The notes under the pieces were generated by a model, which saw only the letters and a program-made list of their open reading frames with translations, had not been told where the DNA came from and made no database searches. A stretch of 40,751 nucleotides of DNA from sequence record NC_002166.1. One strand, 5' to 3'. This document shows positions 2,057 through 28,421 of this stretch, piece by piece. Made by a program: the position numbers and the translations under genes. This stretch comes from Escherichia phage HK022. The first letter of the stretch is position 1; each line of letters begins with the position of its first letter.

Positions 2057-3330
2057 TGGAAGAACCTAAATACACGATTGACCTGCGAACCAATAACGGC
2101 TGGTGGGCAAGGCTGCAGTCCTGGTTTGTCGGCGGGCGTTTAGTCACCCCAAATCAGGGCTCACAGACGGGGCCTGTTTCGGCCCACGGACACCTGGGCG
2201 ATTCATCCATTAACGATGAACGGATACTGCAAATTTCGACTGTGTGGCGCTGCGTGAGCCTGATTTCAACGCTCACGGCATGCTTACCGCTTGATGTCTT
2301 CGAAACAGACCAGAATGACAACCGTAAAAAAGTGGATTTGAGCAATCCACTGGCGCGACTGCTGCGCTACTCACCGAATCAGTACATGACCGCCCAAGAA
2401 TTCAGGGAGGCCATGACGATGCAGCTCTGTTTCTACGGTAACGCATATGCACTTGTGGACCGCAACAGCGCAGGTGACGTGATCAGCCTTCTCCCGCTTC
2501 AGTCTGCCAATATGGATGTGAAGCTCGTCGGAAAAAAAGTGGTTTATCGCTATCAACGCGACAGCGAATACGCCGACTTTTCGCAGAAAGAGATTTTTCA
2601 CCTTAAAGGCTTCGGATTCACCGGGCTTGTAGGCCTGTCACCCATTGCTTTTGCCTGTAAATCGGCAGGTGTGGCAGTTGCGATGGAGGACCAGCAGCGA
2701 GATTTCTTTGCCAACGGCGCCAAGTCTCCGCAAATCCTCTCAACTGGCGAAAAAGTGCTAACTGAACAGCAGCGCTCCCAGGTCGAAGAGAATTTCAAAG
2801 AGATCGCCGGCGGCCCGGTAAAAAAACGCCTCTGGATTCTGGAAGCGGGTTTTTCTACATCGGCAATTGGCGTAACTCCGCAGGATGCCGAAATGATGGC
2901 GTCCCGAAAATTTCAGGTAAGTGAACTGGCGCGATTCTTTGGCGTACCGCCTCACCTTGTCGGCGACGTCGAGAAATCAACGAGCTGGGGATCGGGCATC
3001 GAGCAGCAGAATCTCGGCTTCCTGCAGTACACCCTGCAGCCCTATATCTCCAGGTGGGAAAACAGCATTCAGCGGTGGCTTATTCCTGCTAAGGATGTTG
3101 GCCGCATTCATGCTGAGCACAACCTCGACGGCCTGCTGAGGGGCGATTCGGCATCCCGCGCTGCCTTTATGAAGGCAATGGGAGAGGCAGGGCTACGCAC
3201 CATCAACGAGATGCGACGAACGGACAACCTCCCGCCATTGCCGGGTGGCGATGTGGCAATGCGCCAGTCGCAATACGTGCCGATCACCGATTTAGGAACC
3301 AACAAAGAGCCCCGTAATAACGGGGCTTAA
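2056..3330 (+). CDS. portal protein (HK97-type)
   Basis: 424-aa ORF following terminase; ATG at 2056 overlaps the terminase stop (TGATG); a GTG at 2053 is an alternative start. Confidence 0.85.
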   Translation: MEEPKYTIDLRTNNGWWARLQSWFVGGRLVTPNQGSQTGPVSAHGHLGDSSINDERILQISTVWRCVSLISTLTACLPLDVFETDQNDNRKKVDLSNPLARLLRYSPNQYMTAQEFREAMTMQLCFYGNAYALVDRNSAGDVISLLPLQSANMDVKLVGKKVVYRYQRDSEYADFSQKEIFHLKGFGFTGLVGLSPIAFACKSAGVAVAMEDQQRDFFANGAKSPQILSTGEKVLTEQQRSQVEENFKEIAGGPVKKRLWILEAGFSTSAIGVTPQDAEMMASRKFQVSELARFFGVPPHLVGDVEKSTSWGSGIEQQNLGFLQYTLQPYISRWENSIQRWLIPAKDVGRIHAEHNLDGLLRGDSASRAAFMKAMGEAGLRTINEMRRTDNLPPLPGGDVAMRQSQYVPITDLGTNKEPRNNGA

Positions 3331-3335
3331 TTTTT

Positions 3336-4025
3336 ATGGGGGCCGTAATGCCTGAAATCGTAAAAACGCTGTCCTTCGACGAGACAGAAATCAAATTCAC
3401 CGGTGACGGTAAACAGGGGATTTTTGAAGGCTACGCCTCTGTTTTTAATAACACCGATTCCGATGGCGACATCATTCTGCCCGGGGCGTTTAAAAACGCG
3501 CTGGCGAACCAGACCCGAAAAGTGGCGATGTTTTTTAACCACAGGACGTGGGAACTGCCGGTTGGCAAATGGGACAGCCTGGCTGAAGACGAAAAAGGCC
3601 TGTATGTGCGCGGTCAACTTACCCCAGGACACAGCGGCGCCGCTGACCTGAAAGCGGCAATGCAGCACGGTACGGTTGAAGGTATGTCGGTTGGCTTTTC
3701 CGTTTCGAAAGACGATTACACCATCATTCCAACAGGCCGCATTTTTAAGAATATCCAGGCTCTGCGCGAAATCAGCGTCTGCACTTTCCCCGCCAACGAA
3801 CAGGCTGGCATCGCAGCCATGAAAAGTGTCGATGGCATTGAAACGATTCGTGATGTGGAGAACTGGCTGAGGGATTCAGTCGGCCTCACCAAATCACAGG
3901 CAGTTGGGCTAATTGCCCGGTTTAAGTCAGCGATTCGGAGCGAGTCCGAGGGCGACGGAAACGAAGCACAAATAAACGCTCTGCTTCAGAGCATCAAATC
4001 TTTCCCTTCTAACTTAGGTAAATAA
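3336..4025 (+). CDS. prohead maturation protease (HK97 gp4-like)
   Basis: 229-aa ORF between portal and major capsid; start could be ATG 3336 or ATG 3348. Confidence 0.8.
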   Translation: MGAVMPEIVKTLSFDETEIKFTGDGKQGIFEGYASVFNNTDSDGDIILPGAFKNALANQTRKVAMFFNHRTWELPVGKWDSLAEDEKGLYVRGQLTPGHSGAADLKAAMQHGTVEGMSVGFSVSKDDYTIIPTGRIFKNIQALREISVCTFPANEQAGIAAMKSVDGIETIRDVENWLRDSVGLTKSQAVGLIARFKSAIRSESEGDGNEAQINALLQSIKSFPSNLGK

Positions 4026-26079: not shown

Positions 26080-26291
26080 GAATATCTCCTTCGTTACCGA
26101 TTAATTCTTTCATCTGACGAATGAATTCTTCGTCTGACCAGTTATCTGTAAAACTCATTTCCTGCGATACCATGGAAGGTTGATAGCTGATTTCATCGCT
26201 TTATTTGCTTCAAGCCACATTTTTGAATCACCAATAAATCTGGCTATTACTGCTTTGTTCTGTGCAGCACGAAGCATCTGGTGATTGATGG

Positions 26292-26426
26292 CTATTTCAT
26301 TGCGCATAACGCCTCCAGTTGTTTCTTTGCTGCTCTGATTAATTGTTTAACTCGGCGTGATAATTCAGATTCGTGCGGGTAGAAAGCGGACATGACGCCG
26401 CTACCCGCGAGCTGAAAGTGCATCAT
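26292..26426 (-). CDS. cIII: CIII-like protein
   Basis: 44 aa from tandem ATGs at 26426/26423 with AAGGAG 6 nt upstream; central HESELSRRVKQLIRAAKK resembles the lambda CIII amphipathic core (PSESLLERITRKLRDGWKR). Confidence 0.5.
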   Translation of the reverse strand: MMHFQLAGSGVMSAFYPHESELSRRVKQLIRAAKKQLEALCAMK

Positions 26427-26492
26427 GGGTAACTCCTTATATTTGATTGCATAACGAAAACGCCTCGAGTGAAGCGTTATTGTTATGCATAT

Positions 26493-26516
26493 AAAAAGGC
26501 CCTCACATCGGAGGGC
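26493..26516 (-). terminator. rho-independent terminator upstream of cIII-like gene (tL1-like)
   Basis: GCCCTC-cgatgt-GAGGGCC hairpin followed by T5 on the minus strand. Confidence 0.5.
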
Positions 26517-26600
26517 AAAGAAGATTTCCAATAATCAGAACAAGTCGGCTCCTGTTTAGTTACGAGCGACATTGCTCCGTGTATTCACTCGTTGGAATGA

Positions 26601-27657
26601 GGCTTTGTTGAATAAATCAGATTTCGGGTAAGTCTCCCCCGTAGCGGGTTGTGTTTTCAGGCAATACGCACGCTTTCAGGCATACCTGCTTTCGTCATTT
26701 TGTTCAGCGCTCGTACCAGGGCCATAGCCTCTGCAACCTGACCATCGTAGTCACGCAGTGTCAGTGAACCCCCGAACAGCTGTTTTACCCGGTACATCGC
26801 CGTTTCCGCTATCGAGCGACGGTTGTAATCTGTTGTCCATTTCCACCGCGCATTACTCCCGGTCATTCGCTGATTAGCCACTGCACGGTTACGGTCTGCA
26901 TATTCACCGGGCCAGTAACCCGCACCTTTTCGGGGAGGGATAAGCGCGCTGATTTTCTTACGCCGCAGTTCATCGTGACATAGCCGGGTATCGTAAGCGC
27001 CATCGGCGGCGGCTGACCTGATTTTCCGGTGGGTTTGCCGGATTAACCCGGGGAAGGCCTCTGAGTCCGTAACGTTGTTCAGCGACAGGTCAGCGCAGAT
27101 GATTTCATGTGTTTTACTGTCAACGGCGAGATGCAGCTTACGCCAGATACGGCGGCGTTCCTGGCCATGCTTTTTGACTTTCCACTCGCCTTCACCGAAG
27201 ACCTTCAGCCCGGTGGAATCAATTACCAGGTGTGCGATTTCACCCCGGGTGGGCGTTTTGAAACTGACATTAACCGACTTTGCCCGCCTGCTGACACAGC
27301 TGTAATCCGGGCAGCGTAGCGGAACGTTCATCAGAGAAAAAATGGAATCAATAAAGCCCTGCGCAGCGCGCAGGGTCAGCCTGAATACGCGTTTAATGAC
27401 CAGCACAGTCGTGATGGCAAGGTCAGAATAGCGCTGAGGTCTGCCTCGTGAAGAAGGTGTTGCTGACTCATACCAGGCCTGAATAGCTTCATCATCCAGC
27501 CAGAAAGTTATGGAGCCACGGTTGATGAGGGCTTTATTGTAGGTGGGCCAGTTGGTGATTTTGAACTTTTGCTTTGCCACGGAACGGTCTGCGTTGTCGG
27601 GAAGATACGTGATCTGATCCTTCAACTCAGCAAAAGTTCGATTTATTCAACAAAGCC
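26601..27657 (-). mobile_element. IS903-like insertion sequence (IS5 family), 1057 bp
   Basis: Perfect 18-bp terminal inverted repeats GGCTTTGTTGAATAAATC (26601..26618 and 27640..27657); flanked by 9-bp direct repeat TTGGAATGA (26592..26600 and 27658..27666). Confidence 0.9.
26657..27580 (-). CDS. IS903-type transposase
   Basis: 307 aa from GTG at 27580 (track extends to a TTG at 27625); ends ...MTKAGMPESVRIA as in IS903 transposase. Confidence 0.85.
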   Translation of the reverse strand: MAKQKFKITNWPTYNKALINRGSITFWLDDEAIQAWYESATPSSRGRPQRYSDLAITTVLVIKRVFRLTLRAAQGFIDSIFSLMNVPLRCPDYSCVSRRAKSVNVSFKTPTRGEIAHLVIDSTGLKVFGEGEWKVKKHGQERRRIWRKLHLAVDSKTHEIICADLSLNNVTDSEAFPGLIRQTHRKIRSAAADGAYDTRLCHDELRRKKISALIPPRKGAGYWPGEYADRNRAVANQRMTGSNARWKWTTDYNRRSIAETAMYRVKQLFGGSLTLRDYDGQVAEAMALVRALNKMTKAGMPESVRIA

Positions 27658-27724
27658 TTGGAATGAATACACAGTGCAGTGTTTATTCTGTTGTTTGCGT
27701 GAAAATGAAACCCGCCTGAGCGGG

Positions 27725-28063
27725 TTATGACCACTTTTTGTTTGGGTTTCGCTGGTGAGCGTGATTAACAACTCTGTGCATTACATCCTCATATTTTTCA
27801 TCTTCAATTTTTTCGACATCGCGAGGAAATGGTGTTGCTAATGCTTTGTCAACTTTGTCCATTGGGTCTTCATTAATCTTATATTCAGGACCGTCATCTA
27901 TAGCATTAAATCCAGGTGTCACACCGTTTTTTAATGCATATGCTATCCTTTTTTCCCATCTCGCTATTCTCCTCCTGTCTCGAGATGTAAGACCTCTATC
28001 AGATACTTTTCTGTTTTGTCCGCTGTCAGGATTAACATAAATAGTCTTTTTCACCATAAGCAT
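27725..28063 (-). CDS. nun: Nun-like arginine-rich transcription termination factor (N-position protein)
   Basis: 112 aa from first ATG (track start 28069 is TTG); arginine-rich motif RKVSDRGLTSRDRRRIARWEKR; acidic centre; C-terminus ...NPNKKWS; no SD, as for N-like genes. Confidence 0.75.
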   Translation of the reverse strand: MLMVKKTIYVNPDSGQNRKVSDRGLTSRDRRRIARWEKRIAYALKNGVTPGFNAIDDGPEYKINEDPMDKVDKALATPFPRDVEKIEDEKYEDVMHRVVNHAHQRNPNKKWS

Positions 28064-28239: not shown

Positions 28240-28310
28240 TGAGCAGCATTGCCGTTCATCCTGAACCCGCCGCGCTCCCGACGCATGGTTTAAAGACGCG
28301 CCGTTCGTCT
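28240..28310 (-). promoter_or_regulatory. putL-like cis-acting RNA element
   Basis: GC-rich segment immediately downstream of the predicted pL start, sharing sequence blocks with the element at 29460..29520. Confidence 0.5.
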
Positions 28311-28315
28311 ATGGG

Positions 28316-28344
28316 CTTATGATGTACTTAAAGTTCATTAATGT
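28316..28344 (-). promoter_or_regulatory. candidate pL promoter
   Basis: minus-strand TTGGTA (-35), 17-nt spacer, TATAAG (-10); flanked by operator-like repeats. Confidence 0.4.
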
Positions 28345-28421
28345 AAAGTACCAATAGTACATTTTATGGGTATAAAAAGCTCACTACATCATAAGTTAGT
28401 GAACTTTAAGGAAATTTATTT

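Follow-up and report, generated by a model that had tools for sequence, protein, structure and literature searches.

The leftward early (pL) operon of Escherichia phage HK022 lies on the minus strand of the sequence analysed here (NC_002166.1, 40,751 nucleotides, all of which is referred to below as the window), and runs from the pL promoter through the putL antiterminator RNA and nun to cIII and kil. Non-coding DNA between nun and cIII is occupied by an insertion sequence (IS), which is separated by 58 bp from the preceding nun stop codon and by 175 bp from the cIII start that follows, and carries a transposase gene co-oriented with pL transcription. Annotations were mapped from GenBank X16093 (‘Lambdoid phage HK022 nun gene and immunity region’) and from O276, a laboratory hybrid consisting of lambda carrying the HK022 immunity region (King and Perez, PMC6256539). 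The principal features, in window coordinates and in the order in which they are transcribed from pL, are:

28319..28347, minus strand: pL promoter, -35 TTTACA and -10 CATCAT (promoter scan, coinciding with the mapped O276 annotation)
28241..28303, minus strand: putL antiterminator RNA (identical to the annotated putL of O276)
27725..28063, minus strand: nun, 112 amino acids, the gene preceding the IS on the pL transcript (mapped from X16093 and O276)
27709..27726, minus strand: terminator-like hairpin directly following the nun stop codon and preceding the IS in the pL direction (terminator scan)
26601..27657, minus strand: IS903B (IS5 family, IS903 group), complete, 1057 bp (100% identity to copies labelled IS903B)
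26499..26516, minus strand: tL2a intrinsic terminator stem-loop, forming the 3' end of a homologue of the lambda small RNA PreS (terminator scan; O276 annotation)
26478-26459, minus strand: further terminator-like hairpin in the pL direction (terminator scan)
26292..26426, minus strand: cIII, 44 amino acids, the first protein-coding gene after the IS (X16093; Pfam cIII, E 2.5e-30)
26155-26307, minus strand: kil (X16093 and O276 annotations, mapped)

The components of the element and of its target site are:

26592..26600, no strand assigned: left copy of the target-site duplication, TTGGAATGA (present as a single copy in HK75, mEp235 and lambda)
26601..26618, no strand assigned: terminal inverted repeat distal to the transposase start, GGCTTTGTTGAATAAATC (sequence)
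26657..27580, minus strand: transposase gene, GTG start, 307 codons plus stop, element positions 78-1001 (Pfam, NCBIfam, residues)
27357..27375, minus strand: terminator-like G+C-rich hairpin within the transposase gene, CCCTGCGCGCTGCGCAGGG followed by CTTTATTGAT (terminator scan; co-directional with the gene and with pL)
27640..27657, no strand assigned: terminal inverted repeat proximal to the transposase start, the exact reverse complement of 26601-26618 (sequence)
27658..27666, no strand assigned: right copy of the target-site duplication, TTGGAATGA (sequence)

A sequence-only reading of this DNA had described a 1057-bp element with perfect 18-bp terminal inverted repeats, and re-inspection of 26601-27657 agrees: the repeats match perfectly over 18 bp, with similarity decaying further inward. 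Their sequence, GGCTTTGTTGAATAAATC, is one that we take to be the canonical IS903/IS903B repeat, and both ends match those of annotated IS903 and IS903B copies when these are aligned end to end. The flanking direct repeats reported in the same reading are likewise present, TTGGAATGA directly adjoining both ends as a perfect 9-bp match (chance expectation at one fixed position, ~4e-6). When the element and one repeat copy are deleted in silico, the sequence ...CCGTGTATTCACTCGTTGGAATGAATACACAG... results, and the inverted repeat that had been seen to reappear upon removal of the element is real, and larger than the 9+9 bp originally described. The element is an intact, complete IS903-type insertion sequence, resident in coliphage HK022, which it entered by a standard staggered 9-bp cut.

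The claim of an undisturbed 307-amino acid transposase frame also stands, no interruption being found between the GTG at 27580 and the end of the stop codon at 26657 on the minus strand; a TTG located 15 codons upstream of this GTG is the mechanical open reading frame start given in the program-made list. The protein matches Pfam families DDE_Tnp_1_5 (E 3e-40) and DDE_Tnp_1 (E 6e-33), both above their cut-offs, as well as the NCBIfam IS5 family transposase equivalog (357.6 bits, against a cut-off of 140). It contains D121, D193 and E259, presumably the catalytic DDE triad in IS903 numbering, and the Y-2-R-3-E-6-K signature of IS4/IS5-type transposases at residues 252-266 (YNRRSIAETAMYRVK). The exact 307-amino acid protein occurs on at least 1000 contigs, where it is labelled IS903B family. 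Given this intact sequence, and its identity to a widely spread allele, we infer that the HK022 copy would be competent for transposition. The O276 record labels the equivalent of 27357-27375, the hairpin within the gene, as a ‘predicted transcription terminator in IS903 element’.

Assignment of the element to the IS903 group, as first proposed, holds, and can be refined to IS903B by current naming. Over its entire 1057 bp, the element is 100% identical to many plasmid and chromosomal copies in Citrobacter, Salmonella and E. coli, which NCBI labels ‘IS5-like element IS903B family transposase’. PMC8796155 tabulates the ISfinder entry for IS903B as 1057 bp long, with a 307-amino acid open reading frame at 78-1001, and the frame in HK022, counted from 27657, has exactly these coordinates. 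The published target duplication of both IS903 and IS903B is 9 bp. Compared by way of the labelled copies and the tabulated entry, the HK022 element thus shares its length, frame position and 9-bp duplication with IS903B (ISfinder; GenBank X02527), and no difference between the two is detectable. The element is present at ≥80% coverage in 1,536 of 5,426 complete E. coli genomes, and is therefore very common.

The IS903 of Tn903, for which the ISfinder reference is V00359 and whose name is the one used in the HK022 literature, likewise comprises 1057 bp, with 18-bp inverted repeats, a 9-bp duplication and a 307-amino acid transposase. While the HK022 copy shares this architecture, it differs in sequence: a Tn903-derived fragment (the kanamycin cassette in SopEPhi) is only 96.0% identical over the 227 bp available, indicating that HK022 carries an IS903B-type allele rather than that of Tn903. 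The copy in phage P7, annotated as IS903, is 99.5% identical to the HK022 element.

The insertion itself is already published, and has been known since the HK022 immunity region was first sequenced: PMC6256539, with reference to Oberto et al. 1989, locates an IS903 in HK022 between the cIII and nun genes. X16093, the record of Oberto et al. 1989, matches the window over 3500 bp except at 2 bases, and the stock from which it was sequenced already contained the IS. Both differences belong to a GC/CG swap at 26999-27000, inside the IS; since O276 agrees with the window at these positions, the swap in X16093 is probably an old gel-reading error. This near-identity also bears on the flanking genes, which the sequence-only reading had called nun-like and cIII-like. 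Their placement on either side of the element was right, but the reserve in the naming was unnecessary, as the match to X16093 identifies them as the genuine nun and cIII genes of HK022. O276 contains a 100% identical IS copy at the identical site, labelled ‘IS903 transposase’, and its flanks are identical to those of HK022 from window position 26489 rightwards; being derived from HK022, it does not represent an independent insertion event.

Relatives that lack the insertion provide the empty site. The comparison with such genomes suggested by the earlier reading reveals an uninterrupted site with one TTGGAATGA in HK75, mEp235 and lambda; HK75 and mEp235, both of which carry nun, have the exact ...CCGTGTATTCACTCGTTGGAATGAATACACAG... 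sequence, as do lambda, phage 434 and more than 300 other phage records. These empty sites, with their single TTGGAATGA, prove a precise insertion accompanied by a 9-bp duplication. The junction between IS and flank was found in 0 of 5,426 complete E. coli genomes and in 0 of the 120 related IMG/VR contigs examined, and phage records yielded no independent occurrence of the insertion, O276 being a derivative. From its absence in all of the E. coli genomes and IMG/VR contigs examined, the event appears private to the HK022 lineage. A recent transposition is plausible, given the perfect duplication, the perfect terminal repeats, and the lack of the insertion in any relative.

These observations raise the question of whether HK022 acquired the element during laboratory propagation, rather than carrying it as a natural phage. 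Such an origin would account for a junction that none of the natural relatives, E. coli prophages or viral contigs examined shares, and for a perfect duplication and terminal repeats around an element identical to a circulating allele. We nevertheless consider it distinctly unlikely: Tn903 kanamycin cassettes, a common laboratory source, are only 96% identical over the 227 bp available for comparison, the IS was already in the stock behind the X16093 record of Oberto et al. 1989, and the E. coli K-12 laboratory hosts are not known to carry IS903.

The site does not appear to have been chosen for its sequence. The published preferred target of IS903, WTTYA-N9-TRAAW, is a statistical preference, rather than a criterion for membership of IS903 or IS903B, and the HK022 site matches it at only 5 of the 10 specified positions; as ~25% of all genome positions score at least as high, this is not a preferred target, and the palindromic motif is ruled out as the reason for site choice. 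The split inverted repeat was also considered as the symmetric target signature of the transposase, and rejected, its centre lying ~3.5 bp off that of the duplication.

An insertion within the early-left operon might be expected to interfere with the genes beyond it, and the sequence-only reading had cautioned that the IS could be polar on downstream genes unless antitermination reads through. HK022 has no N protein; its pL transcripts form putL RNA, which binds RNA polymerase. RNA polymerase modified in this way efficiently resists both intrinsic and Rho-dependent terminators for at least 10 kb downstream (PMC9378689). In HK022, a single transcript includes putL and the IS, with putL no more than 662 nt before the point of entry, so that pL transcripts would acquire putL RNA before polymerase reaches the element. 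The put-modified polymerase would then be expected to pass both the hairpin within the IS and any Rho-dependent polarity arising over 1 kb of poorly translated RNA. Since such a polymerase is terminator-resistant, cIII, kil, erf and int/xis should not be silenced by the IS. With putL less than 700 nt ahead of the IS on the same transcript, and with the published properties of put, antitermination through putL is most likely the read-through for which the earlier caution had allowed, and IS903B would behave as a tolerated passenger in HK022.

The opposite outcome, in which the IS lowers expression of cIII, kil, erf and int/xis despite putL, making HK022 a partial early-left mutant, appears highly unlikely. 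It could draw on the terminator-like hairpin that the IS brings into the pL direction, and Rho classically acts on weakly translated RNA, of which the IS would contribute ~1 kb. Against this, putL is located upstream on the same transcript, and put must in any case overcome natural pL terminators: of the four terminator-like hairpins found by the scan in the pL direction (after nun, inside the IS, at tL2a, and at 26478-26459), three are not part of the element. Moreover, in the classical literature HK022 lysogenizes and recombines normally. That O276 is viable does not prove that leftward transcription reads through, since plaques can form without the pL-operon genes. The joint best explanation of the locus is very probably that IS903B is a resident copy, carried as a tolerated passenger in the pL operon; HK022 would thereby illustrate how a terminator-resistant polymerase, modified by put RNA, enables a phage to tolerate a foreign insert of 1 kb amid the genes of an early operon.

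In addition to entering non-coding DNA, the element separated the two arms of a predicted RNA hairpin immediately adjacent to a small RNA homologue:

27667..27682, minus strand: 5' arm of the hairpin in pL-transcript sense, which additionally includes the duplicated bases 27661-27666 (sequence, folding, alignment)
26569..26590, minus strand: 3' arm of the hairpin in pL-transcript sense; inner-stem arm 26577-26590 (sequence, folding, alignment)
26490..26577, minus strand: PreS homologue, intact, +1 G at 26577, 3' end after the tL2a stem-loop (alignment to lambda)

The reconstructed site is predicted to form a hairpin of ~20 bp, with 14 contiguous and 6 outer pairs (dG ~-24 kcal/mol; z ~-6 relative to shuffled sequences). 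The hairpin that is split in HK022 is kept in more than 300 phages. A second allele occurs among IMG/VR relatives (120 contigs, loci L005-L124, underlie the comparison), in which the stem has been replaced wholesale by CATAGCAGA...TCTGCTATG, a sequence that still pairs, between identical flanks; the two alleles differ at nearly every stem position. When 12 variants are aligned, 97% of cells are paired, as against 23-53% in slid controls. Eight pairs have changed on both sides, as expected of compensatory substitution, and since one allele swap accounts for every such change, the covariation counts as a single event.

Two further attributes considered for the hairpin were discarded. Two G-U pairs on the minus strand had hinted at selection on the pL-transcript strand, an idea dropped because both strands of 35 variants fold about equally well. 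Nor does the hairpin qualify as an intrinsic terminator, there being no U-run after it on the pL strand, and the terminator scan calling neither strand. Rfam returned no match at the gathering threshold in the HK022 window, the hairpin and PreS included, and literature on lambda tL2 and on pL processing sites yielded nothing on the hairpin.

The small RNA in question is the lambda LPR1/PreS, an Hfq-dependent sRNA located between ral and ea10 whose 3' end is formed by tL2a (bioRxiv 10.1101/2024.10.31.621285). In lambda, PreS is ~88 nt long, accompanied by a stronger processed form of ~68 nt; it is made in the lytic cycle only, where it activates translation of dnaN (same preprint). The cloning primer P810 sets its +1 at the G of GAGCAATGTCGCTCGTAACT (supplement to bioRxiv 10.1101/2024.10.31.621285). 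HK022 is not mentioned in the preprint (bioRxiv 10.1101/2024.10.31.621285). Aligned with lambda 34011-33924, the HK022 homologue is identical at 83 of 88 positions, including all of nucleotides 1-68; the five differences fall in the loop and tail of tL2a, leaving its stem intact. When the lambda segment spanning hairpin and sRNA (34048-33924) is compared with HK022 minus the IS, identity extends from upstream of the hairpin through sRNA nucleotide 68. The arrangements differ in that 1066 bp, made up of the IS and one copy of the duplicated sequence, separate the hairpin arms in HK022, and in the gene upstream of the hairpin-sRNA-tL2a block, which is nun in HK022 and ral in lambda.

In HK022, the +1 of PreS (26577) is the last base of the inner stem of the hairpin, IS903B ends 24 nt before that base, and the target duplication spans -15 to -23. 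What is new at this locus is thus a small observation, drawn from sequence comparison: IS903B, 24 nt upstream of the predicted PreS homologue of HK022, has split the conserved putative hairpin that abuts it. In a search for a promoter belonging to PreS itself, no sigma-70-like site was found upstream of +1, either in lambda or in the empty site, and HK022 offers only a 7/12 hybrid; the PreS 5' end is therefore probably generated by processing of pL read-through RNA. A plausible hypothesis is that the hairpin serves as a processing or 3'-protection element for PreS. Owing to the duplicated bases, HK022 still has 6 bp of the hairpin directly ahead of +1. The 7/12 hybrid is a weak promoter-like site (TCAACA-17-GTGAAT; window 26583-26611, minus strand) composed of an IS terminal repeat (-35) and target DNA (-10), and it ends 5 nt before the PreS +1. 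Between the transposase stop codon (26657) and tL2a, the scan found no terminator-like site.

It is conceivable, then, that the IS has rewired PreS in HK022, altering how, when or how much of it is made. By one route, loss of the hairpin would change processing of the 5' end or stability of the precursor; by another, transcription from the transposase gene or the IS end would run into PreS and stop at tL2a, resulting in expression outside the lytic programme. The proximity of the IS to +1 (24 nt, with the duplication at -15 to -23) speaks for such an effect, as does the fact that the now-split hairpin is kept in more than 300 phages and occurs in two allelic forms between which 8 pairs have changed in a compensatory manner. 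Also in its favour are a 5' end that, with no sigma-70-like promoter upstream of +1 in lambda or in the empty site, probably arises by processing of the pL transcript, the terminator-free stretch between the transposase stop and tL2a, and the weak hybrid promoter-like site created at the IS end. Several points weigh against rewiring, however: the body of PreS is unchanged, including both base-pairing regions mutated by the preprint authors; the 6-bp remnant is retained upstream of +1; the abundant lambda form is ~68 nt, which places its 5' end ~20 nt inside PreS and farther from the IS; the match of the hybrid promoter is poor; the covariation traces to a single allele swap; and HK022 has remained healthy through decades of propagation with the IS in place. 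On balance, we regard rewiring of PreS as a tentative and rather unlikely possibility. Loss of the hairpin next to PreS may nonetheless leave room for a real phenotypic effect on HK022.

Were PreS rewired, HK022 would represent a natural mutant for PreS 5'-end formation and for the role of the upstream hairpin. HK022 and either HK75 or lambda constitute a natural pair, with and without an interrupted hairpin, suited to the question of how the PreS 5' end is formed. The adjacency to PreS leaves classification of the element as an ordinary IS903-type insertion unchanged.

Elsewhere among the lambdoid phages, similarity to the PreS block, a conserved segment, stops at a few discrete points (query positions 94/95, 105 and 114), at or just beyond the 5' edge of the hairpin (RNA sense; window 27667-27700), suggesting that the hairpin marks a boundary between mosaic modules.

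Several observations concern the relatives. In the HK75 locus, Rfam detects only the cIII thermoregulator (Lambda_thermo, 88 bits, HK75 locus 1965-2023), and nothing at the hairpin or PreS; in the HK022 window, no Lambda_thermo match reaches the gathering threshold in the cIII 5' region (26380-26440). This cIII 5' region is common to HK022 and mEp235, and differs from that of HK75. In phage 434 (OL657226, 31631-31780), the nun 3' end, the terminator, the hairpin and the PreS block all match, at 98% over 150 nt, and the record lists a ‘Nun C-terminal peptide-containing protein’. Phage 434 relies on N, and this protein looks like a vestige of nun. In the pL operon of mEp235 (locus 3004-3650), genes for an N antiterminator and for Nun are annotated side by side.
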